Assembly (NCBI GenBank): GCA_017514025.1
Contig: JAFWLB010000002.1
Coordinates: 62,346 to 126,345 of the forward strand
Direction: 5' to 3'
From: Candidatus Saccharimonadota bacterium
Lineage (GTDB): Bacteria > Patescibacteriota > Saccharimonadia > Saccharimonadales > Saccharimonadaceae
Length of the DNA: 64,000 nucleotides
Notes under the pieces: model-generated
Database searches by the model: none
The model's input: only the letters and a program-made list of their open reading frames with translations
Told to the model about the DNA's origin: nothing
In this document: positions 23,086-53,795 of the stretch, piece after piece
Layout of the letters: the number at the start of each line of letters is the position of its first letter
Numbering within the stretch: position 1 is the stretch's first letter
Translations under genes and position numbers: made by a program

Positions 23086-24819
23086 CTAGTAGCTGGTTTG
23101 AGGGGAGCCGTTGCTGCAGGTGTTGCGGTCTACGAGGGCGCCGTTTTTATAGGCAAAGACGTTCCAATATTCGCAGGAGGATTTGGCGGTGGAACGATAG
23201 GTTTTGGTGCCGAGGTAAGGGCCGGAAACAGTGATGGTGATGTCGCCACCGATAGTACCGGGGTTAGTCCAGTTGCGAATGTAATAATAGTAATCGCGAC
23301 CGCCGAGAGTGTTGATAGTAAAGGTTTCGTTATACCAGTTACCACTACTGTAAGAAGCGCGGCCATCGTGGTCTAGCTGGGCAAGAATACGGGTAACGCC
23401 GTTAACGGTTTCACTGGGAGCGAGGGCACCGTAGTAAGCCTGGAAGCTGCTGCCATTAGATTTTTTACCGGAAATATAGGTATCGTAGTCGGTGTTGGAG
23501 GTCCAGGTGGCTTTGATAGTGATAGTTTCGTTACGTTCGCCCCAGTTGGTGTAAAGTTTAAGGGTGCGGTTAGCGCCAGAGAATGCACTGGTCGGGAAAC
23601 TGATGCCAGTTGGGAAAGTATAATCGGGAGCATAAGAGGTGCCACTACAAGTGCCGTTGTTGGCGCTAGAGTAAACGGTGCACCAGTTACGAAAGACGTA
23701 GCCGGAAGCGGTAAGAGTGACGGGGTTGATTTTGCAGGTCTCGTCTTGGTAGCAAGTTTGGGTGGTTTTGTAGCCAGTGCGGCCGTCTGGATAAGAAATG
23801 TTGTATTCGATGGTGTAGGGGATATGAGTCCATTTGGCGCGGAGATTGTAGACCTTAACGGTATTATCTTCGTCATTAGTGAGAACGGCACCACCTTCGT
23901 AAGTTTGGTGAGTGACTTTGTCTTCCCAGGCGAAGGTCCAACCAAGGCGAGGAGCAACTTCGGGAAGAACAACTTTACGAGCGGGAGGTTTGGAACCATA
24001 GTCGCCGGCGATTGGATCGCTATCAAAGACGGCTCTGACGAGGCCACCGCCGTTTAGGACATCAGGGTCGTAGAGGCGGATGACGGTGGAAATAGTGGAG
24101 GGCTGATCGGCGTCGGTGCCATACCAGCAGGTGCGAATATAGAAGTCATAGAAAGCGGATTCATTGGAAGTGATGCCGTCAGCAACATCGACAACTTTGG
24201 TAGAATTAGCATCTTTGACGGCGATGACGTAGATGCCTTCAGCTCGGAATAGGTTAGTGTTGGCATTGTCATCGATAATAGCATCTTGTTGGGTAGTATT
24301 ACTAGCAGAAGTAGAACCTTTGTAAATGAGACGGGGGTTGATGGTAGCACGCTGAAGAATTTTTTGACCGCTAGTGGTGGCGGTACTATTGATATAAACA
24401 GAATTGATATTGCTGGTAGTGAAGGTGCCGAGGGCGCGAGGGTTTAAAACAAACATGTTGCCGCTGGTGGCGAAACTAGATGTATAGAGACTGTCGCAAG
24501 AAGTTGGGGCATAGTTGAGAACCTCATTTTGCTGGTCGGAACTGAGTTTGCTGAGGTCAATGGCTCTACTGGTAATGGATTTCCAGAGATCGTAGAATTT
24601 GTTGTCTTTGGTGTCGTTTTTGCTGATGGCGTAGGCGGTTTGGACGAAGCGGAGAGCTTCGGCCTGAGTGTCTATCTCTTCGCGAGCGATGGTGGTTTCG
24701 AGGGCGGTTTGCGCACCGGAAGTGCTACCGCTCAAAACTGCGGCGACAGCAATGGCGACCATAGAAAAAATCCCGACTGCAAGAGCCACCTCAACCAATG
24801 TATCACCCTTTTTAAACAT
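23086..24819 (-). CDS. Large minor pilin / putative pilus-tip adhesin
   Basis: Class III signal KG|DTLVEV plus hydrophobic helix; InlB B-repeat-like segments (GWTFAW, GYVFRNWCT) and a C-terminal 'W.SNTDYD...LDHDG...ETF' domain. Confidence 0.75.
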   Translation of the reverse strand: MFKKGDTLVEVALAVGIFSMVAIAVAAVLSGSTSGAQTALETTIAREEIDTQAEALRFVQTAYAISKNDTKDNKFYDLWKSITSRAIDLSKLSSDQQNEVLNYAPTSCDSLYTSSFATSGNMFVLNPRALGTFTTSNINSVYINSTATTSGQKILQRATINPRLIYKGSTSASNTTQQDAIIDDNANTNLFRAEGIYVIAVKDANSTKVVDVADGITSNESAFYDFYIRTCWYGTDADQPSTISTVIRLYDPDVLNGGGLVRAVFDSDPIAGDYGSKPPARKVVLPEVAPRLGWTFAWEDKVTHQTYEGGAVLTNDEDNTVKVYNLRAKWTHIPYTIEYNISYPDGRTGYKTTQTCYQDETCKINPVTLTASGYVFRNWCTVYSSANNGTCSGTSYAPDYTFPTGISFPTSAFSGANRTLKLYTNWGERNETITIKATWTSNTDYDTYISGKKSNGSSFQAYYGALAPSETVNGVTRILAQLDHDGRASYSSGNWYNETFTINTLGGRDYYYYIRNWTNPGTIGGDITITVSGPYLGTKTYRSTAKSSCEYWNVFAYKNGALVDRNTCSNGSPQTSY

Positions 24820-27740: not shown

Positions 27741-28946
27741 TCAAGCGGAGACGGAGTTGACGAGAGAGTAAATCGGGAGCAACGTGCCGCCGACGACGAC
27801 GCCGATGAGGCCGGCCATGATGACCATAAGGATGGGCTCAATCATGGTGGAGATGTTGTTGATTTGTTCGTCTAGTTCGTTTTCGTAGACTTGGGCGGCT
27901 TTACCGAGCATTTCGTCGATTTTACCAGATTCCTCACCGATTGAAGCCATCTGGGGGACGAGCGGGAGCATATATTCCCTGTCCTTCAAGGCTTCGGAGA
28001 GAGGTTTGCCACCTTTAATGATTTCGAGAGATTTAGAATATTCTTCCTCGACGACAGTGTTGGTGACGGAACTGATAGCGATTTTGACGGAATCAAGCAT
28101 GGGAACGCCGGTAGCAAGCATCATTTCGGCAGTACGAGCGAAACGAGAAACATAGAGTTTGCGGAAGAGGCCGCCAAAGAGAGGGACATTGAGCTTAAAG
28201 GTATCGGCAACTTTGCGACCGGCAGGAGTCTTTTTGACGGCATACCAACAACCGATGATGATGCCGGCGACGATTAAGATGACAAGCCACCAGAAATTGC
28301 CAAAGAAGCTGGAAATATCAACGAGAACTTGGGTGAGGGCGGGGAGAGTTTCACCCATGTCTTCATAGAGGCCTTGGACTTGAGGTACGACCATGATCAT
28401 CATGAAGGCAAGCACGGCGATAATAACGACGAGAATGATAGCCGGATAAACGAGGGCGCCTTTGATTTTGCTCATCATGGCGGCGTCTTTTTCTTCTTGG
28501 TCGGCGAGGCGTTTCAAAGCGAGGTCTAGAGTACCAGAAGTTTCACCAGCCTTGATAAGAGCGAGATAAACACCGTTGAAAACGTCAGGATATTCCGAAA
28601 AAGCCTCGAAAAGAGATTTACCAGATTCAACTTTGCCGAGAATTTCCTCAATAATAGTCTTCATGGCCTTGGCTTGAGTCTGTTCGGCGACAGTGCGTAA
28701 CGAAGCAGCGAGCGGAAGACCAGCGCCAATCAAAGTGGCAAGCTGGCGAGTGAACATGACACGATCTTTGGACGTAACGTGGCCTTTTTTGCCAAAGAGG
28801 CCGTTACCTTCTTCAACTACAGATTCGGGGATATATCCCTGCTCAATCAAAAGATGTCCAGCGATTTGTTCGGTTTCGGCAGAAATACTGCCTTTGATGG
28901 TTTTGCCGGTTTCTTTCTCTTTAGCTTTGTAGTTGAAACGGCGCAT
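27741..28946 (-). CDS. pilC: Type IV pilus platform protein PilC (GspF family)
   Basis: FTRQLATLIGAGLPL, AGETSG.LD, KIKGAL.YP, IGEESG.ID.ML, IEP. Confidence 0.95.
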   Translation of the reverse strand: MRRFNYKAKEKETGKTIKGSISAETEQIAGHLLIEQGYIPESVVEEGNGLFGKKGHVTSKDRVMFTRQLATLIGAGLPLAASLRTVAEQTQAKAMKTIIEEILGKVESGKSLFEAFSEYPDVFNGVYLALIKAGETSGTLDLALKRLADQEEKDAAMMSKIKGALVYPAIILVVIIAVLAFMMIMVVPQVQGLYEDMGETLPALTQVLVDISSFFGNFWWLVILIVAGIIIGCWYAVKKTPAGRKVADTFKLNVPLFGGLFRKLYVSRFARTAEMMLATGVPMLDSVKIAISSVTNTVVEEEYSKSLEIIKGGKPLSEALKDREYMLPLVPQMASIGEESGKIDEMLGKAAQVYENELDEQINNISTMIEPILMVIMAGLIGVVVGGTLLPIYSLVNSVSA

Positions 28947-28947
28947 T

Positions 28948-30033
28948 TTAGCCCTTTACTAACCTGTTTAGTTCGTTGATATCGACGGCATATTCGCGAG
29001 CGGAGTCGTAGGTAATAACACCGGTTTGGACAAGTTTGGCGAGGGTGCGATCCATAGTCTGCATGCCTTGGTCGGCGCCAGTTTGGATGGCGTTGTCTAG
29101 CTGATGAGTTTTGCCATCGCGGATAAGAGCACGGATGGCAGAATTAGCAACCATGATTTCGGCGGCAACGACACGACCGCCACCGATAGCTGGAACGAGG
29201 CGCTGTGCACAAATGGCCATAAGCATATTGGAAAGCTGAGTGCGAACCTGAGGCTGTTGGTGTGATGGGAAAACGTCGATCATACGGTCAATAGACTGGG
29301 CAGCGGAGTTGGTGTGCAAAGTTGCAAAAACAAGGTGGCCAGTTTCAGCGATAGTGATGGCGGCCTGAATGGTCTCAAGATCGCGCATCTCGCCGATGAG
29401 AACGACATCAGGGTCTTCACGGAGGACGCTACGCAAGGCGGCGGCGAAGCTAAAGGTGTCATAGTGAACTTCGCGTTGAGCGATGACAGAGCGCTGAGAG
29501 CGATGGGTAAACTCAATCGGGTCTTCGATGGTAATAATGTGGGTAGACTTTTCGCGATTGATTTTGTCAACGAGAGCGGCGAGAGTGGTGGATTTACCGG
29601 AACCGGTAGGACCGGTGACGAGAACGAGGCCACGAGGAAAGTCAGCAAAAGTCTCGACGATGGCGGGCATGCCGAGGTCGTTGATGTTTTTAATTTGGTT
29701 GGGGATGAGACGGAAAGCTGCAGCGAGCTTGCCACGTTCGTGAAAGGCGTTAACTCGGAAACGAGCAATATCACCGAAGGCAAAGGAGTAATCAAACTCT
29801 TTGTCTTTCATGAGGATTTTTTGCTGCTCTTCGTCTAGGGTGGCAAAAACCAGGTTTCTGATGGCGTCTTCGTTTAGAGCGGAAGTGCCGGCGATGGGCG
29901 TAAGAACACCATCGACGCGGAGAATCGGCGGGAGACCATATTGAATATGTAGGTCCGAAGCGTTACGACGGACGCACTCTTCAAGTAGAGTTTCGATTTT
30001 TAGTGTTTGAGTTTGTTGCCCACTGTTTTCCAT
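28948..30033 (-). CDS. pilT: Type IV pilus retraction ATPase PilT
   Basis: GPTGSGKSTT, TIEDPIE, LREDPDVVLIGEMRD, AETGHLVFATLHTNSA, AIR.LIRDGK. Confidence 0.96.
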   Translation of the reverse strand: MENSGQQTQTLKIETLLEECVRRNASDLHIQYGLPPILRVDGVLTPIAGTSALNEDAIRNLVFATLDEEQQKILMKDKEFDYSFAFGDIARFRVNAFHERGKLAAAFRLIPNQIKNINDLGMPAIVETFADFPRGLVLVTGPTGSGKSTTLAALVDKINREKSTHIITIEDPIEFTHRSQRSVIAQREVHYDTFSFAAALRSVLREDPDVVLIGEMRDLETIQAAITIAETGHLVFATLHTNSAAQSIDRMIDVFPSHQQPQVRTQLSNMLMAICAQRLVPAIGGGRVVAAEIMVANSAIRALIRDGKTHQLDNAIQTGADQGMQTMDRTLAKLVQTGVITYDSAREYAVDINELNRLVKG

Positions 30034-30054
30034 AATATTATTTTACCACAATCA

Positions 30055-31821
30055 CTATGACAAGTCACTAGCGACACGGTTGACCTCCTCCATTGATGTT
30101 ATGCCTGATAGAACTTTGAGTACACCGTCCTGGCGCATAGTGACGGTGCCTTTCTCTTTGGCGAGACGCATGATTTCATTGGCAGTAGAATGATCGATGA
30201 TTTTTTTCTGGATATCTTCGTCGACGGTGATGGTTTCGTAAAGACCGGCACGACCTTTGTAGCCACCGGGAGTTTCTTTAGATTCTATACCTTTGGCGAG
30301 CATATAATAATTGTCGTTTTTAATGGGGAGACCGGGATAACCAAGGTCTTGGCTAACGGAGGCAGCTTCTTCCTTGTTTTTAGGGAGAAGGTTGCCGACG
30401 ATACTGTTGATGCCTTTGGTTTCGACTTCGGAAGATTTGTACATTTCGCGTTTTTCGGTAATACGGCGAACGAGACGCTGGCCGATGACAACGTTCAAAG
30501 TGGAGGCGAGGAGGAAGGGTTCAATACCCATATCCAGAAGACGCGGAAGGATACCGGCAGCGGAGTTGGTGTGGAGAGTGGAAAACACGAGGTGGCCGGT
30601 GAGAGCGGCCTGCACAGCGAGGCCGGCAGTTTCGGAGTCACGAATCTCCCCGACCATGACAACGTCAGGGTCTTGGCGGAGAATTGACCTCAGGCCGCTG
30701 GCGAAAGTGAGGCCGGCGTCGACATTGACCTGGATTTGATTGATGCCGTCCATTTTGTATTCAACCGGATCTTCTAGGGTGACAATGTTGATTTGTTCGG
30801 ATTTGATTTGCTGAATGAGGGCATAGAGAGTGGTAGATTTACCGGAGCCAGTAGGACCAGAAGTCAAAATCATGCCGTTGGGTTTTTTAATGCCTTCGAG
30901 AACGTCACGAAGGGCACGACCGGACATACCCATTTTTTCGATATCCATGGAGACGCCTTTTTTGTCAAGAAGACGAATAACAACCTGTTCGCCCCAAGTG
31001 ACGGGAGAAATAGCGATACGGAGGTCTATTTCCTGACCGTCAACCAGCACGGTAAACTGACCGTCCTGGGGAATGCGGTGTTCATCGATTTTAAGGGCAG
31101 CGAGGATTTTAATACGAGAAACGAGGGCGGGGGCGACGGTTTTGGGAAGCTCCATGATTTTGCGAAGGACGCCGTCGATGCGGCAGCGGATGATAAGGGA
31201 GTTTTCGAGAGGCTCAATGTGAATATCAGAGGCTTTGGTTTTGGCAGAATAGCTGAGGATAGTGGTAAGAGCCTTAGAAATAGGAGAATCCTCGACGATA
31301 GTTTTGGCATTAGACTTGGGAGTATCGTCGACTGCTTCCCCGCTGCCCTCTTTAACAACGTCTTTAACGCTAGAAATATCGCCGTGGTATTGGTTGAGGA
31401 TTTCCTGGATGCCTTGTTCGGAAGACATCCAAACCCGAATAGGCTGGTTGATAAGGTTGGAAAGGTAGTCGGTGGCCTGGACGTTGGTGACGTCGACCAT
31501 GGCAACGTTGAGCATGCCGTCTTTTTCGCCGAGAGCAACGGCGTGGACGCGGTTAGAGGCGTCGCCGGGAATTTTGGCGAGAGTGTCTTGATCGATAGTG
31601 ATGTTTTTTAGCTCAACATACGGGACGCCAATAATGGCGGCGGTGGCGCGAGCAACCATTTCTTCGTTGATGATTTTGCGATTAATAAGTTCAGAAAGAA
31701 GTGGTTTGTCCTCGGCGTCGACTTGTTGCCAGATGGTGTTGACTAGATTGCGGTCGGCTAAACCCTCGTTTAAGAGGAGCTCGGTAATCCTTCTTTCGGC
31801 GTCTTTAGTAAGGAGTGCCAT
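30055..31821 (-). CDS. pilB: Type IV pilus assembly ATPase PilB (GspE/PulE family)
   Basis: ASDIHIEP, PQDG, GPTGSGKSTT, LRQDPDVVMVGEIRD, GYKGRAGLYE. Confidence 0.96.
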   Translation of the reverse strand: MALLTKDAERRITELLLNEGLADRNLVNTIWQQVDAEDKPLLSELINRKIINEEMVARATAAIIGVPYVELKNITIDQDTLAKIPGDASNRVHAVALGEKDGMLNVAMVDVTNVQATDYLSNLINQPIRVWMSSEQGIQEILNQYHGDISSVKDVVKEGSGEAVDDTPKSNAKTIVEDSPISKALTTILSYSAKTKASDIHIEPLENSLIIRCRIDGVLRKIMELPKTVAPALVSRIKILAALKIDEHRIPQDGQFTVLVDGQEIDLRIAISPVTWGEQVVIRLLDKKGVSMDIEKMGMSGRALRDVLEGIKKPNGMILTSGPTGSGKSTTLYALIQQIKSEQINIVTLEDPVEYKMDGINQIQVNVDAGLTFASGLRSILRQDPDVVMVGEIRDSETAGLAVQAALTGHLVFSTLHTNSAAGILPRLLDMGIEPFLLASTLNVVIGQRLVRRITEKREMYKSSEVETKGINSIVGNLLPKNKEEAASVSQDLGYPGLPIKNDNYYMLAKGIESKETPGGYKGRAGLYETITVDEDIQKKIIDHSTANEIMRLAKEKGTVTMRQDGVLKVLSGITSMEEVNRVASDLS

Positions 31822-32129
31822 TACTGGGTCTCCTGATTAGCTTCGCTAGGTTGCTCTCCCTCTGTAGATTCGTTGTTGGTGGTGCCGTCTATGCAGGCGC
31901 CAGAAGCATCATATTCGGTACAATCGCCAATGAAAATTTCGACGGTGGGGTTAAGAGCTTTGTAGTTGAAAACTTCAGGGTTAGGATCGGGGAGTTCGGC
32001 GCTGACTTCGTTCTCGATGGTCGTGATAGCTACTGGCTCGATTTCGCCGATAAAGAGATTGCAGACGAAATAAGAAATCAGGACACCGGCGACGGCGGCG
32101 ATGATGGCGGTGAATAATTCAGATTTCAT
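31821..32129 (-). CDS. Small TM protein in the pil operon
   Basis: 102 aa, N-terminal TM, translationally coupled to pilB. Confidence 0.7.
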   Translation of the reverse strand: MKSELFTAIIAAVAGVLISYFVCNLFIGEIEPVAITTIENEVSAELPDPNPEVFNYKALNPTVEIFIGDCTEYDASGACIDGTTNNESTEGEQPSEANQETQ

Positions 32130-32131
32130 GT

Positions 32132-33064
32132 TTATTCTTCCTCCTCTGTTGTGGTGTTAGTTGTGTCGGTAGCGGAAGAGTCTGTAGTAGTGGCGGTGTC
32201 GTTGCCGGGCTTGATAGTCTTGGTGGTTTCAACAATGCTGGATTCGTTCATATAGTAAGCGTTGGCCTGGAACTGAAGACTAATGGTGTTGGCGGCTTGC
32301 CATTCGATATTGGCGCGGAGAATATTGAATTCGCGGATAGAGCGCTCGATGTTGGTGAGAGCTCTCATAGTGGTGCCGAAGTCGGCTTCGATTTTGGAAC
32401 TAACGGAAATTTCATTCAAGTTTTCAGCAATTTCGGAAGCTTCAGATGTGCCGCTAGAGCTGATGGACTCTGGCTCCCAGTTAGCAGTGAGGTAGAGTTT
32501 GTTGAGGCTAGCGAGCAGGGCTTCTTCGTTTTTGAAGGCCGGAAGGGCGTCCGGAATGACACGAAGGGCGGAACAGCTTTTGATTAGGCTACTCGCGGCT
32601 TGGAGTTCGGAAGCGCCTCGAGCGTCGCTGTATAGTTTGCTGAGTTCTTTGTAGGTGTAATTTTTTTGAGTGCTGGGATTGATGCAGTTGGAATTATCTT
32701 CTTTGGGGACGGAGCCGAGGGCGGAGTTGGCGGCAAGGTTTTCGAGGATGTTGGCGCGAAGAGTGCCGGGGACTTCGGAAACTTCGATGCTATCTGGTGA
32801 ACATTTTTCGAGCTCGCCATCGGAGTAAACTTGGCCGGAAGGAGATTTACAGACACCGGTAGATTTGATGACGTTAGAATAAGCGGCAATAGATTCGTCG
32901 GCAGCCATGATAACTTTGGTGTTAAAAGAAATTTGTTGCGTAAAATGTGAGACGAGAGAAATGGCAACACCGAGGAAGATGGAGGCACCAAGCACTGCTA
33001 GCAACATGTGTTGCTGGGCTTCTGAGATTTTGGCACGTTTGCCGATTGCGATTTCTTTAGCCAT
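32132..33064 (-). CDS. PilO-like alignment protein
   Basis: TM after a basic N-terminus; 'R.LPDALP', 'NIERSIREFNI' ferredoxin-like region; position after the PilN-like gene. Confidence 0.6.
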   Translation of the reverse strand: MAKEIAIGKRAKISEAQQHMLLAVLGASIFLGVAISLVSHFTQQISFNTKVIMAADESIAAYSNVIKSTGVCKSPSGQVYSDGELEKCSPDSIEVSEVPGTLRANILENLAANSALGSVPKEDNSNCINPSTQKNYTYKELSKLYSDARGASELQAASSLIKSCSALRVIPDALPAFKNEEALLASLNKLYLTANWEPESISSSGTSEASEIAENLNEISVSSKIEADFGTTMRALTNIERSIREFNILRANIEWQAANTISLQFQANAYYMNESSIVETTKTIKPGNDTATTTDSSATDTTNTTTEEEE

Positions 33065-33065
33065 T

Positions 33066-34331
33066 TTAGCCTTCTCCGTTTACGTTTTTAGTATTATCGC
33101 TACAGGTAGTGTCGTTGGCGTCACAGTCAGTAGCACGTTGGCTGAACATGGCCTGGACTTGGAGATAGGAATCGGTGACATTATGGCGACCAGAAGGTGC
33201 AACGGCGAGCATATGAGTGTTGGAAAATTGGTAAGCTTCTGGGGCAATAAGGATGGTGGCAGAAAATCTCAAAACGAGTTGTTCGTCAGCGTCGCGACCG
33301 TTGGTGGCTTCGGAAATGCTGATACCTTCGGTGCTGCCGCCGGGTACAAGCTGACATTCATCATTGGTCTTGGTCCAAGTAGGATTGTCTTCGTCACCTT
33401 CGCCGGTGTAAGTGGTGCAGGCGCTTTCGAAGTGGGCGACGTTGGTGATAGTGCCATCAAGGCTGATGGAGGGCTGGTTGCCAGTGGGGTTTTTGTGATA
33501 CCAATCTTTTTGAGGTGTGCGCCAGATACGGACGACTTGTTGGCCTTCGTATTCTTCGAGGTCATAGCCTTCGGTGGGATTAGTAGTGTCTTCATCGGCG
33601 GCGGGGTTGCAGCCTTCGCCGTTGATAGTCCAGAGAGCATAAATGCTGTTATTATCTTGACTGGAAAGGCCGCGACGACCGGTGTCAGTGAAAATCGCAC
33701 CATCGGAACCGGATTCAATCATGCAGTAAGCAGGGATAGTGTTGCCGTCCTTGTCGACGTAACTACCATAATCGTAGCGCATTTCATCCATACTCTTGCG
33801 GAAAGCTTCGAGTACGGCGAAGTCAATGTAGGGTTCGTTACCAGAGTTCGCCTGAGCGTCAAAGGTAAAAGTAGGTTGCTCCTCGGCGAGGTCGACGTCC
33901 ATCTCGGAAATGGTGATGGTGTCACCGCCGGTCGGCAAGAAAGCGGAGAGGATATTAAAAGTACGAGAGAGGACTTTTTTGTTGTCGGTCAAAGTAGAGA
34001 CGTCGCCGAGCTGATCTTTAATAGTAAGAAAATCATTGAGATCACTGTAAGAAGCGAGTTTGGCAGAAAGATTATCGATGGTGCCTTTTTTGCTGTTGAT
34101 GGCGATTTGCTGGCCACCAGCGGTAATACCAAAAATCAAGGTGATGCCGATGCTGGCAGAAGCGACAACGATACAGATGAAGAAGATGAAATTGCGAAGT
34201 TTCAGGGTTTTAATCATTTCGTTCTTGATATCGGGAACGAGGTTGATTTCGCGATGATATCTGCGAAGAGCACTACCTTTTTTGGGGGTAAGCTTGCTGA
34301 TGATATCGGAAATTTTGAACTCTTTAGCCAT
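33066..34331 (-). CDS. PilN-like alignment protein with large Cys-containing insertions
   Basis: 'EINLVP' PilM-binding motif, TM, coiled coil; directly after pilM. Confidence 0.65.
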   Translation of the reverse strand: MAKEFKISDIISKLTPKKGSALRRYHREINLVPDIKNEMIKTLKLRNFIFFICIVVASASIGITLIFGITAGGQQIAINSKKGTIDNLSAKLASYSDLNDFLTIKDQLGDVSTLTDNKKVLSRTFNILSAFLPTGGDTITISEMDVDLAEEQPTFTFDAQANSGNEPYIDFAVLEAFRKSMDEMRYDYGSYVDKDGNTIPAYCMIESGSDGAIFTDTGRRGLSSQDNNSIYALWTINGEGCNPAADEDTTNPTEGYDLEEYEGQQVVRIWRTPQKDWYHKNPTGNQPSISLDGTITNVAHFESACTTYTGEGDEDNPTWTKTNDECQLVPGGSTEGISISEATNGRDADEQLVLRFSATILIAPEAYQFSNTHMLAVAPSGRHNVTDSYLQVQAMFSQRATDCDANDTTCSDNTKNVNGEG

Positions 34332-35377
34332 TAGTCATTGCTCCTTTCTGATAGGCCAATAGCGACAGCGAATTCGCTGGCGACAGGCGCAAGAACACGT
34401 TGCTGTTCGGGAGTAGTCCGGACGAGCTGCCAAGGGTTACCTTTGACCGTGGGGACGTTGGTTTTGGCTTCAATAAATTCGGGGAAAAGCGGAATCATGC
34501 TAGCATAACCAGAGAGAACGATGCCGCCAACTTTGCCACTGAGATATTTGGTCTGGAAGAAACGGACGGATTTGGTAAGCTCGGAAGCGAAATTATCAAG
34601 ATGAGTGTTGAGGATTTTGAAGACTTGACCTTCGACTTGGTTTTGATCGAGACCAAATTTGAGGATAAATTGACGGGCTTGATCTTCGCGAACGCTAAGA
34701 CCGTTAGCGACGGCCTTGACCAAAACGCCGATACCACCGGGGATGGAGCGAACGAGACGAGGTTGGTCTTTGTAGTTGATAGCAATATCGGTAGATTTTT
34801 CACCAAAGTCGACCACCATGGTAGCATCCATGGCGCCAGGAATATTGAGAGAGCGGGCCATGGCGAGAGGCTCTGGTTCCATGGCGACGATGTTGAGGCC
34901 AGTTTTTTCAATCATTTCCATAGTGGACTCGGCGTAATCTTTAGCGATGGAAGAAACGAGGATTTCGGTTTTGGCCGGGTCGTTAGGGCTGGGGCCGAGG
35001 ATGATATAATCGGCTTTAGCATCGCTAAGGGACATAGGGACGTATTTGTCGAGCTCGTATTTGAAAGATTTAGCGAGTTCTTTTTCGGGGAGAGTTTCAG
35101 TTTCGACAACGGAAGTGAAAGTTTTAGTAGCGGGAAGACCGAGTGCGACGTTTTTAGTCTTAATACCGGCTTGATTGACGGCACCCATGACCGCTTCACC
35201 TAAGCGCTTTTTACCCAAATCAGAAGAGTCCATTGTGAGTTTTTGATCGATGGGGACGTAAGCAAATTTTTGGAGAACCCAACCGTGCTGGATGTTACCA
35301 GAAAGCTGGATAATCCGCATCGAGTTCGTCCCTATGTCTAGCGAGAAGAAGTCGCCCACACCATGCAATAAGTTCAT
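34331..35377 (-). CDS. pilM: Type IV pilus assembly protein PilM
   Basis: LDIGTNSMR, VDFGEKST, L.R.IP.G, IVLSG actin-like fold motifs. Confidence 0.93.
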   Translation of the reverse strand: MNLLHGVGDFFSLDIGTNSMRIIQLSGNIQHGWVLQKFAYVPIDQKLTMDSSDLGKKRLGEAVMGAVNQAGIKTKNVALGLPATKTFTSVVETETLPEKELAKSFKYELDKYVPMSLSDAKADYIILGPSPNDPAKTEILVSSIAKDYAESTMEMIEKTGLNIVAMEPEPLAMARSLNIPGAMDATMVVDFGEKSTDIAINYKDQPRLVRSIPGGIGVLVKAVANGLSVREDQARQFILKFGLDQNQVEGQVFKILNTHLDNFASELTKSVRFFQTKYLSGKVGGIVLSGYASMIPLFPEFIEAKTNVPTVKGNPWQLVRTTPEQQRVLAPVASEFAVAIGLSERSND

Positions 35378-37804: not shown

Positions 37805-38443
37805 ATGGTTAAAGATTATTTATTGGCGCACAAAAAACTGGTAGCTTGGGTGGCGATCTCAGTAATAGTGATTATTGTGGTGATACTAGTGATTTTGGAT
37901 ATTTTGAGGAGTACTACGGTGAGTATTTTAGTGACCCCAAGGGAAGCGACGGTGTCAATCAATGGAGATAATTACACAAACGGAACTTATCGAATTTTCC
38001 CGACCGAAAGGGCTACTGTGACGATTAAAGCGCCGGGGTTTGAGGAGAAGAGTTTTGAATTGGATTTTCCGGCAAACACGACGGTGGCAATACAAGACTA
38101 TTTAGTGAATTTAGAGGAAGGGATGAGCTATTACGAGAGTGATGCGGAGGATTATGCGATATTGAAATTGGTAGCAAAAGACGAAACGGCGCTAGATTTT
38201 ATTGCTGATTTTGAACAGAAGTTGAGTATTAAAGATTATTTACCATTAGTGCATTATGGGGAAGGAATTGGGGGCGGAGCGATAGAAATTACTGATGCAA
38301 GTGACGCGGAGAACTGTAATAGGATTGTCTGTTTGCAGGTGTCCAGTAATATAGGAGAAGACGCAGTAAAGCAAGTACTGCGCGACAAAGGTTTTAATTA
38401 TGACGATTATCTGGTGTTTTATCAGACTTATAATGGGGTCTAG
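37805..38443 (+). CDS. TM-anchored PEGA-like domain protein
   Basis: TM then 'VSILVTPREATVSING...VTIKAPGF'. Confidence 0.65.
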   Translation: MVKDYLLAHKKLVAWVAISVIVIIVVILVILDILRSTTVSILVTPREATVSINGDNYTNGTYRIFPTERATVTIKAPGFEEKSFELDFPANTTVAIQDYLVNLEEGMSYYESDAEDYAILKLVAKDETALDFIADFEQKLSIKDYLPLVHYGEGIGGGAIEITDASDAENCNRIVCLQVSSNIGEDAVKQVLRDKGFNYDDYLVFYQTYNGV

Positions 38444-38467: not shown

Positions 38468-39220
38468 TTAAGCGCCGTCGCAGTAGTCGGGGATTTCGAA
38501 GTTGAAATCGCTGGGATTAAAGCCTTTTTGCTTTAGCCACTGGTTAGTGAGTTCGAGGGCGCGGGTTTTGATGGATTGGTCACCGCAAGAATTGACGGAG
38601 ATTTCATAACGAGTAAGAGAACCTCTTTCCCTACCGACCCTGGAAACAGTGACGGTGGGGATTTCGGATTGATTAATAGTGTGGGGGAGATAGTTAACGA
38701 GATCAAGGGGATTTTTGGTAGGTGTAATGATTTTAAGCGCATCATAAGATAAGACGGTGCCGCCCTTATAGCTGAGAGTGAGTTGGTAGTTGTTTTTGGT
38801 GGTGCCGGTGAGTTGAGCGATGAATTCTTTGCCATCGCTAGCAACGAGGGTAAAAATATAAGTGTCGCCCTCGGTAGCGAGGCTATCTTTTTTGTAGCTG
38901 ATTTTTTCGACCTGGGGGAGAGTGTTATGGAAGAAGACTTGGAGTTGGTTTTTGACGGCAGAGGCAAGATCGGAATCCATTTGGCTGGCTACTTGTTCGT
39001 AGCCGACAAAAACGGGACCATCGGAGCTGATGGCGCCAGTGTTGAGGGTGTTGATGGTTTCACCAGAGACGGAATCGACATAGGTGTGGGAATCCTGGCG
39101 ATTGGCGAGCCAGAAAGAAACAACGACAATGGCGAAAACGGCGATGCCAATGAAGATATAAGATATAACTTTGGTAAGTTCTTGGTTGTTGGTGAAAAAG
39201 TTGTGGAGTTTGTTTTGCAT
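38468..39220 (-). CDS. Hypothetical TM-anchored extracytoplasmic protein
   Basis: 250 aa, single TM, C-terminal Cys pair; 4 nt downstream of the large hydrolase gene. Confidence 0.7.
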   Translation of the reverse strand: MQNKLHNFFTNNQELTKVISYIFIGIAVFAIVVVSFWLANRQDSHTYVDSVSGETINTLNTGAISSDGPVFVGYEQVASQMDSDLASAVKNQLQVFFHNTLPQVEKISYKKDSLATEGDTYIFTLVASDGKEFIAQLTGTTKNNYQLTLSYKGGTVLSYDALKIITPTKNPLDLVNYLPHTINQSEIPTVTVSRVGRERGSLTRYEISVNSCGDQSIKTRALELTNQWLKQKGFNPSDFNFEIPDYCDGA

Positions 39221-39224
39221 ATTA

Positions 39225-42200
39225 TTATTTCCTCTTTATTGCTTGAAATGTATTCATGGTAGGATAAATTGTACTAGGATCCCATTCTTTATTGAGGGTG
39301 TTATCTTCGCCATTGCCTTTACTGTCGGCGACAAGCCATTTGCCGCTACCGGTGATACCACGGATACCGATGCAGTGACCACCGCTAGTAAAGGGTTCGC
39401 CGCCGTTGCCGCAAGTCCAAATCATCCAGCCATCTTTGAGCTTGGCGCTGACTTCTTCCATGGAAGGACTGCCCATGTCTTCGTGTTTGAGGCCGAAGTG
39501 ATCGGCAATAATGGCAGGCAAAGAATGACTGGAACCGGCGCCACAAACATGCCCACCACGATCGCCAGCATACTTACCGACTTCGTCTGGCAAAATCTCC
39601 TTGCCAGTGAGAGCGGTAGCCATCATGGCAAAAGATGCTACGCCGCAGCCACCTTCGCAAACATTATTACCTCCTCCAGGGCATGGTGGGCCGAATTCAG
39701 CATTAGCCCACCTGTCGTCGCATTGATTATACCACGGAAAGTCACCAGTCCAAGTATTATTATCACATGGGTCGTCATTTTGACCTTGAAGAGATTTAGA
39801 TACCATGTTCCAAATGTTGCCGGGGTCGGTATGGTCATTATCGGGAACGTGCATGTGGCCGAGAATGCCCTTGTAATTTTTGAAGTCATTGACACTGAGG
39901 CGGCTGGGGCTTTCCCAGTCTACATTGGTGGTGAGGGGAATGCTGGTCTCGGAACTGATGGCGGCAAGAAGCTTGCCGAGGTAAGCCCAGCTGTCATCGC
40001 TGAAGTTATCACTATTTAGTAAATACCAGTCGCTATCTTTATGGTCATCGGAGAAACCAATGATTTCGATTTGGACGCCAGCGGCATCATCGTGAGATGC
40101 GACGGCGTCAGCAGGTTTAGTGATGGGAAGATGTTGGAAGACTTTTTTAGTTTTCATGTTGATAGTGAAGTGTGCTGGAAAAATACCGTGGCCGTGATCA
40201 TTGCCATAAAGGGCAAGGCCGCTGTTGCCATCGCCGGCATCTCCGTCAGTGCTGTGGAGAGTGATTTTGTTGGGGCCGGAACTGCCGTCTTTAGGAGAGA
40301 CGGTGGAATAATCACCATTGTGAGCGCTGTCGCCGAGTTTATAGCTAGAACCGACGGCGGGTTCTTTGACATAGCCTTCCATGCCACCAGTGATCCAGCC
40401 GTCCGCCCATTGCACGGTGGAGCTGGCGACGCCGTCACTATTGGAGTTGTAGGAAGTGGAGACGCTTTCACCGAGGATTTCGGAAAGCTTGTCGGTGTTT
40501 ATGTGGCCATTGAGGTCGGCGTAGAGGATGCCAGATTCTGGCATAGAATAGCGCCAAACGTAGGCGAGACCATCACTTTTGCCTCTCCAGCCACCCCAAG
40601 CGGCTTCGATGGTGATGACTTCGTCGCCTTCTACACCGACAACGATGCCGGTGTGATTATCGCTACCGTGAACGACGGTGCCACCGGGGTTGGAAAAGAC
40701 GGAAAAGGCAATGGGTTTATCACTAGTTTCCAGATGATAATCGGCGGCAAGGTTGCCGGCGGTGTCGAGACCGTCACCCCTGGTAGGATTGTCGGTGTTA
40801 CCGCCCGTTAAATCAGTTAGGTTTGCGACGAACCAGCCACTAAAGGCTACACAGTTTTCTTTGGTGCCTTGATAATAGCCTGAACCTAGAGGAGTGGAGT
40901 CGGCATTGTAGTAGTCGGCGATTTTTTGGGCTTGAGCTTCGGTGAGACCACCGGAGATTGTAGTGGCTTGGTCAGGCTTCTCACAACAGGGGTCGTCTTG
41001 CTTGTTAGTATTACTACTGGTGCCAAGCCCCTGCATGATGAGATCGACGAAGAGTTGACCGCCTTCGGCGTTGGGGTGGACGGCATCTTGCATGTATTTA
41101 CCGGGGTCTTGACTGGCTTCAGTTTTCCAGTCGACGAGGATAACTTTATCATTAGCCTCGGCGAATTTTTTGAAGTTTTCGTTGTTGATGTTATATTCTT
41201 TGTCGGAGTCGCGGTAGTAATTAGTGAGAATGACAATTTTTTCACAGCTACTAGCTAGGTCTAGAAGTTCATTGAGTTTGTCTTCAGAGACGGCCCTACC
41301 GCTTTTGTTGCCATTATTTGATCCAAGGGCAAAAACGAGGTTTTGACGAAGTTTGCCTTCATCCTTGAGTTTCTTGAGAATAGTGAGACCATCTTCGCCA
41401 CCTTGCGCATCATAGCCGCTAGGATCCCAGAAAGGTTTGGAAGATTGAACGTAGAGGTCGGCGTTGGGGAGTTTTTCATTGTAGATAGACTGGGCGCCGT
41501 AGCTGATGGAGTCGCCAATGACGGTGACGTCGGAGCCGTCGCCGGTGTAGGTGCCATTGGTTTTGCCGCCACCAGCGCTAGTGCGGCCAGTGGACATACT
41601 AGAGCAGTCGGCGTGGAGAGAGTGTGGCTCGGCGTTAATCTGATTTTTGATGTCGCCGTTCACCGGCCAGTTGCCGCCTTTGGGGATGTCTTTTTGTTTT
41701 TGGAGTTCAGTGGAAGTGGGATAGCCCATAGATTTGGCGACTTCGTGGATTTTGTCGATATCCTGATCATAAACTGAGAGATAGTAGGAGCCGCAGCCGG
41801 CAGTACAGTAGATGCCATCGGTTTCAGCTAAGAGGAATTGGCGCGGGTCAAAGTTGCTAGGCTGGGCGTATTCAAAGGCGGCGTCATAGGCGCCATTACG
41901 AAGATAGTCGGCAGCGAAAGACATAAACATGTCGGCAAGGTTTTCATACATGGAGCCGAAGCCACCATCGGAGTGCCAGGCGCGACAGGAACCCATTTCG
42001 TCAGCGGAGATGCCGTAAAGTGAGCTGTTGCCGTATTTGTAGCCCATCCAGTTGTAATAGCCGCATAATTCGGTAGTGTGAGCGACTGATGGGTCGGCGA
42101 GGCCAAAGTGCGATTCGGCGTGGGCGTGAATGATAGGGATTTCCCAGGGAATGCCGTATTCTATCTGCATATTCATAAGCATGGAGCCGTATTTTTCGAC

Positions 42201-42485
42201 TACTTCGACAAGACGCTCTTCCCAGGTAGAACCGGTAATTTCACCACCGCAAGGACCGCTGATATTGCTAGCGTTGCAAGGCATCCAGTTGGTGATATTA
42301 TTCTGGGAGAATAAATTGCGATCTGCTTGAAGAAGAGTAGTGGAGTCTCCCTTTTGCGTATTGGCGGCAGAAGCAGGTGTTCCTCCTATCAAGAACACTA
42401 GGAACAAAAAGAAAAACAAAAAAATTGTTTTAAGTTTTCGCTGACAAACTATTGAATACTGAAAACCATTGCTCCCACTAAGCAT
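39225..42485 (-). CDS. Secreted 1086-aa multidomain cell-wall hydrolase (lysozyme-like, SGNH, CHAP, amidase_2, C39-like)
   Basis: Signal peptide; 'HAESHFG' glycosidase-like; GDS/GSNN/DAVH; NCVAF...HTGIV; TLHST...GHMHVP.NDHTDPG; YNQ...GCG...GHC...ADS. Confidence 0.8.
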   Translation of the reverse strand: MLSGSNGFQYSIVCQRKLKTIFLFFFLFLVFLIGGTPASAANTQKGDSTTLLQADRNLFSQNNITNWMPCNASNISGPCGGEITGSTWEERLVEVVEKYGSMLMNMQIEYGIPWEIPIIHAHAESHFGLADPSVAHTTELCGYYNWMGYKYGNSSLYGISADEMGSCRAWHSDGGFGSMYENLADMFMSFAADYLRNGAYDAAFEYAQPSNFDPRQFLLAETDGIYCTAGCGSYYLSVYDQDIDKIHEVAKSMGYPTSTELQKQKDIPKGGNWPVNGDIKNQINAEPHSLHADCSSMSTGRTSAGGGKTNGTYTGDGSDVTVIGDSISYGAQSIYNEKLPNADLYVQSSKPFWDPSGYDAQGGEDGLTILKKLKDEGKLRQNLVFALGSNNGNKSGRAVSEDKLNELLDLASSCEKIVILTNYYRDSDKEYNINNENFKKFAEANDKVILVDWKTEASQDPGKYMQDAVHPNAEGGQLFVDLIMQGLGTSSNTNKQDDPCCEKPDQATTISGGLTEAQAQKIADYYNADSTPLGSGYYQGTKENCVAFSGWFVANLTDLTGGNTDNPTRGDGLDTAGNLAADYHLETSDKPIAFSVFSNPGGTVVHGSDNHTGIVVGVEGDEVITIEAAWGGWRGKSDGLAYVWRYSMPESGILYADLNGHINTDKLSEILGESVSTSYNSNSDGVASSTVQWADGWITGGMEGYVKEPAVGSSYKLGDSAHNGDYSTVSPKDGSSGPNKITLHSTDGDAGDGNSGLALYGNDHGHGIFPAHFTINMKTKKVFQHLPITKPADAVASHDDAAGVQIEIIGFSDDHKDSDWYLLNSDNFSDDSWAYLGKLLAAISSETSIPLTTNVDWESPSRLSVNDFKNYKGILGHMHVPDNDHTDPGNIWNMVSKSLQGQNDDPCDNNTWTGDFPWYNQCDDRWANAEFGPPCPGGGNNVCEGGCGVASFAMMATALTGKEILPDEVGKYAGDRGGHVCGAGSSHSLPAIIADHFGLKHEDMGSPSMEEVSAKLKDGWMIWTCGNGGEPFTSGGHCIGIRGITGSGKWLVADSKGNGEDNTLNKEWDPSTIYPTMNTFQAIKRK

Positions 42486-42511
42486 ATGGTTATATTATAG
42501 CACATGGTGAT

Positions 42512-42612
42512 GCTAGGCGGAAGCCAAACTATCGACTTTTGCGAAGCAAAAGTCGTCCAGCGTCGCTCGCTCAATAAAACAAAAGCTTTTGTTTTATGTT
42601 TGCTCCGCTAGC
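42512..42612. repeat. ~100-bp branched palindromic (REP/MITE-like) element
   Basis: Outer arms GCTAG(G)CGGA / TCCGCTAGC enclose hairpins CGACTTTTGC-gaa-GCAAAAGTCG (42533-42555) and ATAAAACAAAAGCTTTTGTTTTAT (42574-42597). Confidence 0.7.
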
Positions 42613-52466: not shown

Positions 52467-53795
52467 TTAAACCTTGTGACTTTCCTCGACGATGGCTGAC
52501 ACCATATTGACAACGGCTTCAACCTTGACGAATTCTTTTCTTGGGAAGGCTTTGCCGTTGGTCCTTTTGCCAAATACAAGCCTGCCTATTTCTTTACCTT
52601 TACTATCCCTGAGAGTTGCAACCTCGGAGACACAGAAGCCATTTTTTAAAATCTTTTCAGGAGACTTAACCCAAATGAGGCCGTCGGTGGGTTTCAAACG
52701 TAAAATTTCTTCGGCTTCATCTGCTGGGAAACGCATATTGTTAGTAACATAAGTATGCTTAGCCAAAATTAAAGCACAATCCTCATAATGTAAAGTTTCA
52801 GCGAGAAATTGGACTAATTCTTTGGGGTTGAAATCTTTCGACTGAATATTGTCTAGTTTTTTAATAATATAACCAAGCTGGATATGGTCGGACAGGAAGC
52901 TGGCTTTCATAAAATTGGTTAATTCTGAGAGAGCAGGCATCATGGCAAGCAGAAAAATCGCCAGGACGCCGTTTAGAATCAGTACCTCTACGGATGGATT
53001 AGGCGTCCTAAACAGGGCGGCAAAGACGACGTAAAAGACGAGTAGATAGATAATCACGGCAGTGGCGGTGAGGATAACATAGGACATAAGATTCACCCAT
53101 CTGGTGGAGATATTTAGGGTACGGAATTTGACGACAGAATAGTAGAAAGACATGATAGAAATGATGGTAGCCATAGGGCCGATCCAGATAAGGTTTGGCA
53201 GAGAGGTGATTAAGATTAAATCGAAAACTAAGGCCAAAATCCCACCAATAGAGAGCCCCACATAAAAGACTTTGAGACCAGTTTTGAGGCTAGGGTTAGT
53301 GGTCTCTTTGATACGTTTTAAAAGAAAACTGGAAAAAGTAATTGAGATTAGGAAGAAATAGGCAATCAAAGCGAAATAATACCAACCGTAATTAATAAAA
53401 ATCTGAACATATTCTTGGGACAAGTCATAAGAACTATAAAACAGAGAGGAGTCGTAGGCGAGCAAGCCAACGAGCAGAGCGCCAAAAAGCGTAAAAATAA
53501 ATGTTAGAGGTTTGCCACCTTTATATTTCCAGCTGAGGAAGGCTAAAAGTCCTACATCGCAAAGTGTAACGCCGGCAATGATGCATGTTACGGTGCTATG
53601 AACAAATTCAGGGGAGGCACCGGGCATTTTTAAAGCAATGGCAATAGCGATAGTCCAGAGAGCGGCGCCGAGAGTAGCTAGCAGAAAATAGATTGAGCTT
53701 CTTTTTTCTTGCTTTCGACTGCCAAAGAAAATGGAGATACCGGACAATATAACCACAACGATGGCCGCTATTAATAATACACGAATAAGTTGCAT
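52467..53795 (-). CDS. 7TM sensor-like membrane protein (HisKA_7TM-like) with cytoplasmic GAF-like region and no kinase domain
   Basis: Repeated TM helices with '..YF...L...LW...' and 'G..YY....YF' patterns; C-terminal 'G.LVFGKR.NGKAF...E'. Confidence 0.6.
   Translation of the reverse strand: MQLIRVLLIAAIVVVILSGISIFFGSRKQEKRSSIYFLLATLGAALWTIAIAIALKMPGASPEFVHSTVTCIIAGVTLCDVGLLAFLSWKYKGGKPLTFIFTLFGALLVGLLAYDSSLFYSSYDLSQEYVQIFINYGWYYFALIAYFFLISITFSSFLLKRIKETTNPSLKTGLKVFYVGLSIGGILALVFDLILITSLPNLIWIGPMATIISIMSFYYSVVKFRTLNISTRWVNLMSYVILTATAVIIYLLVFYVVFAALFRTPNPSVEVLILNGVLAIFLLAMMPALSELTNFMKASFLSDHIQLGYIIKKLDNIQSKDFNPKELVQFLAETLHYEDCALILAKHTYVTNNMRFPADEAEEILRLKPTDGLIWVKSPEKILKNGFCVSEVATLRDSKGKEIGRLVFGKRTNGKAFPRKEFVKVEAVVNMVSAIVEESHKV

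Follow-up and report, generated by a model that had tools for sequence, protein, structure and literature searches.

The 64-kb window analysed here, i.e. the whole stretch of 64,000 nucleotides (nt) taken from contig JAFWLB010000002.1 of a Candidatus Saccharimonadota bacterium, harbours a single uninterrupted open reading frame (ORF) that very probably encodes a secreted peptidoglycan hydrolase with five catalytic modules. The gene forms a small cassette with a gene for a partner protein and a gene for a PEGA-domain membrane-anchored protein (Table 1). A first-pass annotation of this DNA had read five catalytic domains from short sequence motifs. In the translation of the ORF all of these motifs occur in one frame, each at its expected place: HAESHFG starts at residue 122, GDS, GSNN and DAVH at 324, 388 and 467, NCVAF and HTGIV at 544 and 611, TLHST, EIIG, GHMH and DHTDP at 742, 807, 876 and 884, and YNQ, GCGV, GGHC and ADS at 919, 946, 1035 and 1053. 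As annotated, the N-terminus reads by inspection as a signal peptide of the Sec type, and an equivalent hydrophobic N-terminus is present in homologues.

Table 1 Features of the hydrolase gene and its surroundings in the 64-kb window
Feature	Position	Strand	Size or residues	Remarks
Hydrolase gene	39225..42485	(-)	1086 aa	Stop codon 39225-39227
Signal peptide	42333..42485	(-)	1-51	QRKLK, hydrophobic core, TPASA followed by AN; read by eye
Module 1, GH73-like (glucosaminidase or lysozyme-like fold)	41586..42323	(-)	~55-300	Glu124 in HAESHFG
Module 2, compact SGNH, OatA C-terminal type	41010..41546	(-)	~314-492	Ser326 (GDS), Gly388/Asn390 (GSNN), Asp467/His470 (DAVH)
Module 3, CHAP amidohydrolase/peptidase	40521..40973	(-)	~505-655	Cys545, His611
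Module 4, Amidase_2 (zinc N-acetylmuramoyl-L-alanine amidase fold)	39780..40472	(-)	~672-902	Conserved lead-in W.DGWITGG ahead of the module
Module 5, Peptidase_C39_2 (papain-like)	39228..39773	(-)	~905-1086	Gln921, Cys947, His1037, Asp1054
Junction after module 1	~41601-41631		285-295	Cysteine at 294
Junction after module 2	~40983-40991		499-501	PCC at 499, cysteines at 500-501
Junction after module 4	~39765-39770		906-907	PCD at 906, cysteine at 907
Possible extended -10 promoter	42494..42503	(-)		TGcTATAAT, ends 8 nt before hydrolase ATG; read from sequence
Partner gene	38468..39220	(-)	250 aa	4 nt after hydrolase stop; N-terminal membrane helix, extracytoplasmic domain
PEGA-domain membrane-anchored protein	37805..38443	(+)	212 aa	Pfam PEGA 21.7 bits, cut-off 20.8
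Type IV pilus cluster	27741-35377			PilB-like ATPase, PilM and more ORFs
PilB-like ATPase	30055-31821
PilM	34331-35377

A Pfam scan of the whole protein returned Peptidase_C39_2 above threshold, CHAP, Lipase_GDSL_2 and Glucosaminidase below it, and left Amidase_2 unmatched; the full protein gave no match in NCBIfam and marginal or trivial matches only in PHROGs. The modules were also scanned one by one against Pfam with its curated gathering cut-offs (GA). Peptidase_C39_2 (PF13529; 38.1 bits, GA 24) and Amidase_2 (PF01510; 31.3 bits, GA 26) passed, CHAP (PF05257; 26.5 bits, GA 26) was a borderline pass, and Lipase_GDSL_2 (27.9 bits, GA 32.9; E 4e-6) and Glucosaminidase (PF01832; 19.3 bits, GA 30.2) stayed below. 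Modules 1 and 4, the weakest, were modelled with AlphaFold2 from family alignments and the models compared with the PDB by Foldseek, which returned a GH73/lysozyme-like fold and a zinc amidase fold, respectively. For the conservation of catalytic residues, five module profiles were built from 160 relatives of the protein and all module copies were aligned. These residues are kept in 86-100% of 67-102 copies, and the modules are therefore regarded as real and look catalytically competent. The five modules and their order, as proposed in the first-pass annotation, are thus borne out by Pfam and profile matches, two structure models with fold searches, and conserved catalytic residues.

Over 96 copies of the C39-like module 5, conservation is 95% for Q921, 100% for C947 and 98% for H1037, and no solved relative of this module was found by a profile search of PDB sequences. 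The same search yielded nothing meaningful for modules 1, 3 and 4. C545 and H611 of the CHAP module are kept in 100% and 99% of 85 copies. The AlphaFold2 model of module 4 (predicted local distance difference test (pLDDT) 77, predicted template modelling score (pTM) 0.83) found AmpD (2y28) as best Foldseek match (E 3e-4, probability 1.0), followed by the amidase endolysins LysCS and Ph2119, AmiE, AmiA, PGRPs and T7 lysozyme. From the spacing of the motifs, His744, His877 and Asp887 are inferred to be the likely zinc ligands and Glu807 the catalytic residue; over 89 amidase copies, H744, E807, H877/H879 and D887 each show 92-94% conservation. A spacing of 10 between H877 and D887, together with the D-P-G motif, would be compatible with the AmpD pattern.

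Module 1 was less easily assigned. Nine of 11 close family copies of this module match Glucosaminidase, with 2e-7 as best value. Its model (pLDDT 72, pTM 0.78) has the GH73 autolysin Auto of Listeria (3fi7; E 8e-3, probability 1.0) as top Foldseek match, followed among the specific matches by 5t1q, the type VI secretion system effector Tge2 (4kt3), the glucosaminidase domain of a C. difficile endolysin (8yxk) and FlgJ (3vwo/5dn5); the GH73 or lysozyme-like class is common to all of the top specific matches. No Foldseek match of this model reached E<=1e-3, and because of these weak E-values the GH73 assignment is regarded as moderate, not strong. The general acid E124, in an E-S/T-x-x-G motif, is kept in 99% of 67 GH73-like copies; the second catalytic carboxylate of GH73 varies across the family. 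Characterised GH73 members are N-acetylglucosaminidases. The region first described as lysozyme/glucosaminidase-like thus falls, by profile and Foldseek, on the glucosaminidase and not on the muramidase side. This bears on a further proposal of the first-pass annotation, namely that an esterase module would assist the glycan cutter since O-acetylation protects peptidoglycan from muramidases. For a module 1 of the glucosaminidase type this rule does not directly predict synergy, and the argument could not be transferred as it stood.

The SGNH module carries the three motifs GDS, GSNN and DAVH intact, as annotated, and over 102 SGNH copies S326 is conserved in 94%, G388 in 98%, N390 in 94% and H470 in 86%. 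The single sequence found the C-terminal domain of S. aureus OatA (OatA-C; 6wn9/6vjp) at E 1e-7 (phmmer), and a profile of 12 SGNH sequences found the same domain at E 2e-15 and that of S. pneumoniae OatA (5ufy/5ug1) at E 1e-12. The next best SGNH proteins, TesA-type thioesterases and uncharacterised GDSL proteins, matched this profile at ~1e-5, and the profile favours OatA-C over generic SGNH esterases by ~7 or more orders of magnitude. No Ape-type chain was present among its 28 PDB matches at E<=1. Of the OatA/Ape-type relationship suggested earlier, the OatA half has thus held and the Ape half has not. Judged by these searches, module 2 belongs to the peptidoglycan-specific OatA-C branch. 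When homologues were searched for again with the SGNH profile, only ten short fragments came back, which were uninformative on origin.

The acetyl group that OatA-C attaches to O-6 of N-acetylmuramic acid (MurNAc) is supplied by an AT3 membrane domain fused to it; in vitro OatA-C also hydrolyses activated esters. Pfam scans found no AT3 acyltransferase domain in the hydrolase or in its two cassette neighbours. The protein is therefore not an OatA, and the likeness is limited to its SGNH module. Because the module would act outside the cell and lacks an AT3 donor, net hydrolysis of O-acetyl groups is the most economical reading, and a de-O-acetylase (esterase) function is a reasonable inference, not an established property. 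It is unlikely, but worth weighing, that module 2 instead acts on another ester, such as acetylated polysaccharide or teichoic acid of the wall, D-alanyl esters or, after the wall has been breached, lipids of the host membrane, or that it transfers acyl groups. SGNH enzymes are chemically promiscuous, and the weaker PDB matches of the module are of the TesA thioesterase/lysophospholipase types. Phospholipases have in fact been proposed as host-envelope-damaging factors of Patescibacteria (PMC11665869). The strong preference of the profile for OatA-C over the lipase and thioesterase types speaks against such substrates, as does the fusion of the SGNH module to peptidoglycan hydrolase modules in 102 of 160 relatives. 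Acyl transfer would agree with the best PDB matches, which are transferases, but the protein lacks a domain that could donate the acyl group.

The protein belongs to a large family of mosaic proteins. A word-indexed search found 16 relatives, three of them full-length at ~50% identity and one named Candidatus Saccharibacteria; where a name is given, the annotation does not go beyond 'hypothetical'. An exhaustive search of 1.84 billion representatives revealed 2693 proteins at E<=1e-3, of which 183 at E<=1e-30. With the five module profiles the module order was assigned in the best 160 of these 2693 relatives, with G for GH73-like, S for SGNH, C for CHAP, A for Amidase_2 and P for Peptidase_C39_2. 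This comparison of domain order among homologues, which the first-pass annotation had suggested, revealed 36 different module orders. The commonest were SP (22), SPC (16), SAC (13), SA (10), GAP (9) and GA (8), besides others, and the order of the window protein, GSCAP, was found in 7 clusters. S is present in 102, P in 94, A in 88, C in 84 and G in 57 of the 160 relatives.

Scanning of species-representative genomes with amidase-module patterns yielded 52 loci. Almost all of these are labelled Saccharibacteria, Nanosyncoccus or Nanosyncoccaceae and come from metagenome-assembled genomes (MAGs) of rumen, gut or faecal origin; the closest one belongs to a Candidatus Nanosyncoccus sp. (77%). DNA sequencing runs that contain the hydrolase gene are gut, bovine, sheep and manure metagenomes, and no RNA sequencing runs holding the hydrolase sequence were found. 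A few loci (L022, L025, L035, L038, L045 and L053) are labelled otherwise, as Methanobrevibacter, Bulleidia, Bacillus, Nomurabacteria or Clostridiales. Since the same cassette is found on them, these are most likely mis-binned contigs of public MAGs, and L022 also shares the S6-SSB-EF-P-FtsJ-PilM synteny described below. The family is restricted to Saccharibacteria, mostly of animal-gut MAGs, and the window gene comes from a gut Saccharibacterium that is Nanosyncoccus-like.

Cysteine-containing linkers, noted in the first-pass annotation, were found between modules (Table 1), and conserved cysteines mark every module junction: AEPHSL..C stands at the end of the GH73-like module, CC or CxC after SGNH and a single Cys behind the amidase, while two Cys follow the C39-like module in relatives. 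The junction cysteines move along with the modules during reshuffling. They might serve as disulfide staples, processing sites or recombination joints. The second of these roles would make the protein a polyprotein, in which the C39-like or CHAP peptidase cuts the Cys linkers after export to release five separate enzymes. C39 peptidases are classically processing proteases, the module boundaries bear conserved motifs, and staphylococcal Atl is comparably processed into an amidase and a glucosaminidase. Many family members without a C39-like or CHAP module, however, keep the same linkers, and Peptidase_C39_2 is also listed as a catalytic domain of phage endolysins, which makes a polyprotein rather improbable.

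The mobility of modules also raises the question of whether the 3' part of the gene, encoding the C39-like module, was recently acquired from another genome. The first-pass annotation had noticed balanced G and C at 39361-39420 and taken it as a hint of a different history. The dip is real: GC skew is -0.06 over these 60 nt and -0.09 over the C39-coding part (39250-39750), compared to a window mean of +0.20 (standard deviation 0.11). The module 5 part, however, has 15.9% Gly and 8 Cys, and the dip is caused by this Gly/Cys-rich coding, mainly at codon positions 1 and 2. The third-position skew of module 5, 0.44, lies at the 15th percentile of equal-sized windows from 28 other minus-strand genes, i.e. 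it is matched or undercut by 15% of them, and therefore gives no support for a separate history; GC content is ordinary as well. Recent acquisition of this part is accordingly regarded as highly improbable, even though modules clearly move between family members.

The base composition of the window as a whole (1-64000) is unusual in another respect. The mean skew of +0.20 applies to the plus strand, yet most genes lie on the minus strand, so that coding strands are C-rich; the skew at third codon positions is ~0.6. Usually a G-rich leading strand carries most genes, and the window shows the opposite. A similar oddity of strand composition has reportedly been seen in a Microgenomates genome (PMC7143001).

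The hydrolase gene has two regular companions. In the partner protein the LP, CG, W and CD positions are invariant; it had no match in Pfam, and a profile search of PDB sequences found none either. It is 31% identical to the product of the gene downstream of a hydrolase orthologue (P0004) at locus L001, which has an unrelated neighbourhood. When profiles of the partner and PEGA proteins were run over all fetched loci, ~50 of 52 loci had a partner homologue as the gene immediately following the hydrolase, and nearly all had a PEGA homologue directly upstream of the hydrolase and/or just after the partner, whatever the module order. The cassette also surrounds hydrolases without an amidase module. 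Four such hydrolases were examined (P0005, P0008, P0010 and P0011), and all have a PEGA homologue upstream (E 1e-37 to 1e-47) and a gene of ~245-263 amino acids downstream, which matches the partner profile in three of the four cases (L057-L059), weakly (E 1e-3 to 1e-4). The PEGA profile weakly matches some partner proteins, and both have a similar C-terminal Cys-containing element; the two families may be distant paralogues. Most genomes carry one locus and some carry two. At L005 (610-6704), L037 (2-10609) and L044 (1697-6197) two or three hydrolases stand in tandem with partner and PEGA genes interleaved, which looks like local duplication of the cassette.

Upstream of the hydrolase ATG (42486-42594, minus strand) no Shine-Dalgarno sequence is present. 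A perfect 10-bp hairpin, CGACTTTTGC-TTC-GCAAAAGTCG, follows the ftsK stop and precedes the extended -10 element, which was missed by a promoter consensus scan because it lacks a -35 element. This arrangement suggests that the hydrolase gene may have its own promoter and a leaderless or near-leaderless mRNA.

The hydrolase of the window has FtsK, S6, SSB, EF-P, FtsJ and PilM as neighbours, and the wider order FtsK - cassette - S6 - SSB - (S18) - EF-P - FtsJ - PilM is common to the window and six loci. The hydrolase content of the slot between FtsK and S6 differs: it is GSCAP in the window, GSPC in L057, APC in L006 and two genes in L005, a P-containing one and APC, with only A recognised in L022 and L034. 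The locus is thus orthologous across these genomes and its catalytic content is not. A protein facing a foreign substrate that varies would be expected to diversify in place in this way.

The type IV pilus cluster lies 4-12 kb from the hydrolase, and the block from PilM to S6 is syntenic with the cassette in several genomes. Large genes in the window include those for DNA polymerase III alpha, primase, ArgRS, PilB, FtsK and a P-type ATPase. Three long ORFs of 577, 421 and 442 amino acids (23086-24819, 33066-34331 and 52467-53795 (-)) have no Pfam match at E<=1e-5.

VirB1-like multi-domain hydrolases open the wall for Gram-positive conjugation systems, and membership of a type IV secretion system (T4SS) cluster was considered for the window protein. 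No T4SS genes were found among the scanned ORFs of the window or among ten large neighbouring ORFs scanned at other loci, so that these scans do not place the window protein in a T4SS cluster. A weak link exists at one locus (L060), where the cassette lies beside a TrbL-like gene (TrbL_3) and an array of small ORFs. A comparable trio has been described in S. epibionticum ML1, where it follows VirB4 and a 1113-aa DD-peptidase-like protein at the end of a T4SS operon (PMC10633639 supplements). It consists of SEML1_0006 (643 aa; GH73, phage-tail lysozyme and cysteine proteinase), SEML1_0005 (211 aa; PEGA) and SEML1_0004 (249 aa); all three were scored essential by transposon sequencing (Tn-seq), and the hydrolase was counted as part of the T4SS by the authors (PMC10633639). 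The same genes have been noted as possible VirB1 substitutes (PMC12102498). In size and order they closely resemble the window cassette. A 715-aa 'peptidoglycan DD-metalloendopeptidase' with Peptidase_M23 and NlpC/P60 domains is encoded in the T4SS cluster of Corynebacterium striatum plasmid NZ_CP069515.1 (L061, 5377-7524). Its unannotated middle (~residues 209-366) matches module 2 (27.5% identity, E 7e-6) and is therefore a precedent, in the host phylum, for an SGNH-like part in secretion-associated wall hydrolases.

These findings bear on the possibility that the enzyme is a self-directed autolysin or remodeller, used in budding, daughter-cell separation or opening of the wall for the assembly of T4SS or type IV pili, with the two membrane proteins positioning and restraining it. 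The housekeeping setting next to ftsK, the nearby pilus cluster and the status of the cassette as a conserved core feature of the class agree with such a role, and so do the TrbL-like neighbour at L060, the Corynebacterium plasmid hydrolase and the place of the comparable S. epibionticum genes at the end of a T4SS operon (PMC10633639, PMC12102498). The lack of T4SS genes among the ORFs scanned in the window and the ten flanking ORFs scanned elsewhere argues against it. An invariant own wall does not, moreover, obviously call for over 30 combinations of modules, differing at the same locus from one close relative to the next, and five catalytic modules exceed any described VirB1-like helper (PrgK has three). 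Self-directed action is regarded as less likely on this evidence.

A host-directed peptidoglycan-degrading enzyme is favoured over a self-directed or secretion-helping one, with modest confidence. The enzyme would be exported via Sec from the gut Saccharibacterium; its SGNH module, extracellular and without an AT3 donor, would strip O-acetyl groups from the glycan strands, and the other four modules would cut the glycan backbone, the MurNAc-peptide amide bond and bonds of the peptide stem or cross-bridge, so that a single polypeptide might take apart a small area of the wall. At the surface of the epibiont, the PEGA protein and the partner would hold or restrain the enzyme; they may serve as its anchor or as a safeguard for the producing cell. 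The main substrate would be the host bacterium's wall where the epibiont attaches, and the reshuffling of modules would follow differences in host wall chemistry. In favour of a host target are the combinatorial diversification at a fixed locus and the restriction of the family to an obligately epibiotic lineage. The phage matches, discussed below, agree with this as well, since the phage relatives of the amidase module are almost all endolysins of actinophages, and every Saccharibacterium in culture has its hosts in the phylum Actinobacteria (PMC10633639, PMC11665869). The comparable genes of S. epibionticum are essential, though all growth in that system is epibiotic (PMC10633639).

Several points weigh against a host-directed enzyme as set out above. 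The family is known from sequences and predicted structures alone. Saccharibacteria possess a peptidoglycan of their own, and the hydrolase gene is surrounded by housekeeping genes, with ftsK adjacent; a conserved cassette with mostly one locus per genome fits a self-directed role equally well. The gut Nanosyncoccus lineage has no known hosts, and the S. epibionticum trio was likened to the cassette by annotation, gene sizes and order alone. On the biochemical side, the closest solved relatives of module 2 are transferases and not esterases, the GH73 call depends on a sub-threshold Pfam score and a weak Foldseek E-value (8e-3), and O-acetylation of MurNAc is not the classical block for glucosaminidases.

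Within the host-directed reading it is tentatively proposed that the locus is a conserved 'wall-breaching' cassette of three genes, for two PEGA-type membrane proteins and one secreted enzyme. The catalytic modules of this enzyme, an OatA-derived de-O-acetylase among them, would be exchanged at the locus in the manner of cartridges, so as to suit the host's wall chemistry. If so, the module set would be a genetic determinant of which hosts can be attached to and used for feeding; exchange of modules in place at a fixed locus is the pattern expected of a host-specificity factor. Reviews on entry through the host wall mention only generic 'lytic transglycosylases and phospholipases' (PMC11665869), and the family presents a concrete, testable candidate for how ultrasmall epibionts pass the thick wall of the host, attach and extract nutrients. 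Should module 2 act as proposed, it would be the first SGNH domain of the OatA type to have been taken up by a secreted wall hydrolase, and would show how the fold of an acetyltransferase came to serve as an esterase that removes protection. Should the enzyme prove to be self-directed, it would be the most module-rich autolysin known to us, and would give a handle on how Saccharibacteria divide. Modular wall hydrolases as a kind, and each single module family, are already known. New, in that none was described in the literature searched, are a single chain with five catalytic modules, a secreted hydrolase that contains an OatA-type SGNH module, a mosaic family of this size restricted to Saccharibacteria, and a fixed cassette with in-place exchange.

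The relation to phage lysins was analyzed by comparison with 50,697 phage records. Ninety-nine records match the protein, among which 61 of Streptomyces phages and 32 of Brevibacterium phages, all by single modules and not over the whole protein; endolysins of Brevibacterium phages share 35% identity with module 4 (E 2e-14). No genuine phage lysin with a match to module 2 was found among these records, and four unannotated Staphylococcus or Listeria 'phage' records that do match it are most likely host OatA. A phage endolysin identity of the window protein was rejected in view of its housekeeping neighbours, the absence of a phage or prophage lysis module and the trivial PHROGs matches. The protein shares its Glucosaminidase, CHAP, Amidase_2 and Peptidase_C39_2 families and the shuffling of modules with phage endolysins and bifunctional autolysins, such as mycobacteriophage LysA, staphylococcal LysK (CHAP and Amidase_2) and Atl (amidase and glucosaminidase). 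The literature reports endolysins that carry as many as four catalytic domains. In contrast to endolysins, the window protein is encoded on the chromosome, at a conserved locus that is not of phage type, carries a signal peptide and an additional SGNH domain, and reaches five catalytic modules; no cell-wall-binding repeats were recognised in it.

With the OatA enzymes of S. aureus and S. pneumoniae, module 2 has in common the compact SGNH fold of ~170 residues and the GDS, G.N, VDW and D..H motifs. In OatA this domain is fused to the AT3 membrane acyltransferase, whereas module 2 sits between hydrolase modules of a secreted protein. Ape1-type O-acetylesterases of Neisseria and others, which are SGNH serine esterases as module 2 would be, carry out the reaction that is proposed for it; module 2 is nevertheless OatA-like, without a sequence match to Ape structures at E<=1. 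The VirB1-like hydrolases PrgK of pCF10 (LytM, SLT and CHAP), TraG of pIP501 (SLT and CHAP) and CwlT of ICEBs1 resemble the window protein in their export or membrane anchoring and in the stringing together of peptidoglycan-cutting modules, including a CHAP or NlpC/P60-type peptidase. They have two or three catalytic modules with SLT as glycan cutter, whereas the window protein has five, with a GH73-like one in that role; and unlike the VirB1-like hydrolases, hydrolases of the window type have no T4SS genes among their scanned neighbours and are paired with two accessory membrane proteins.

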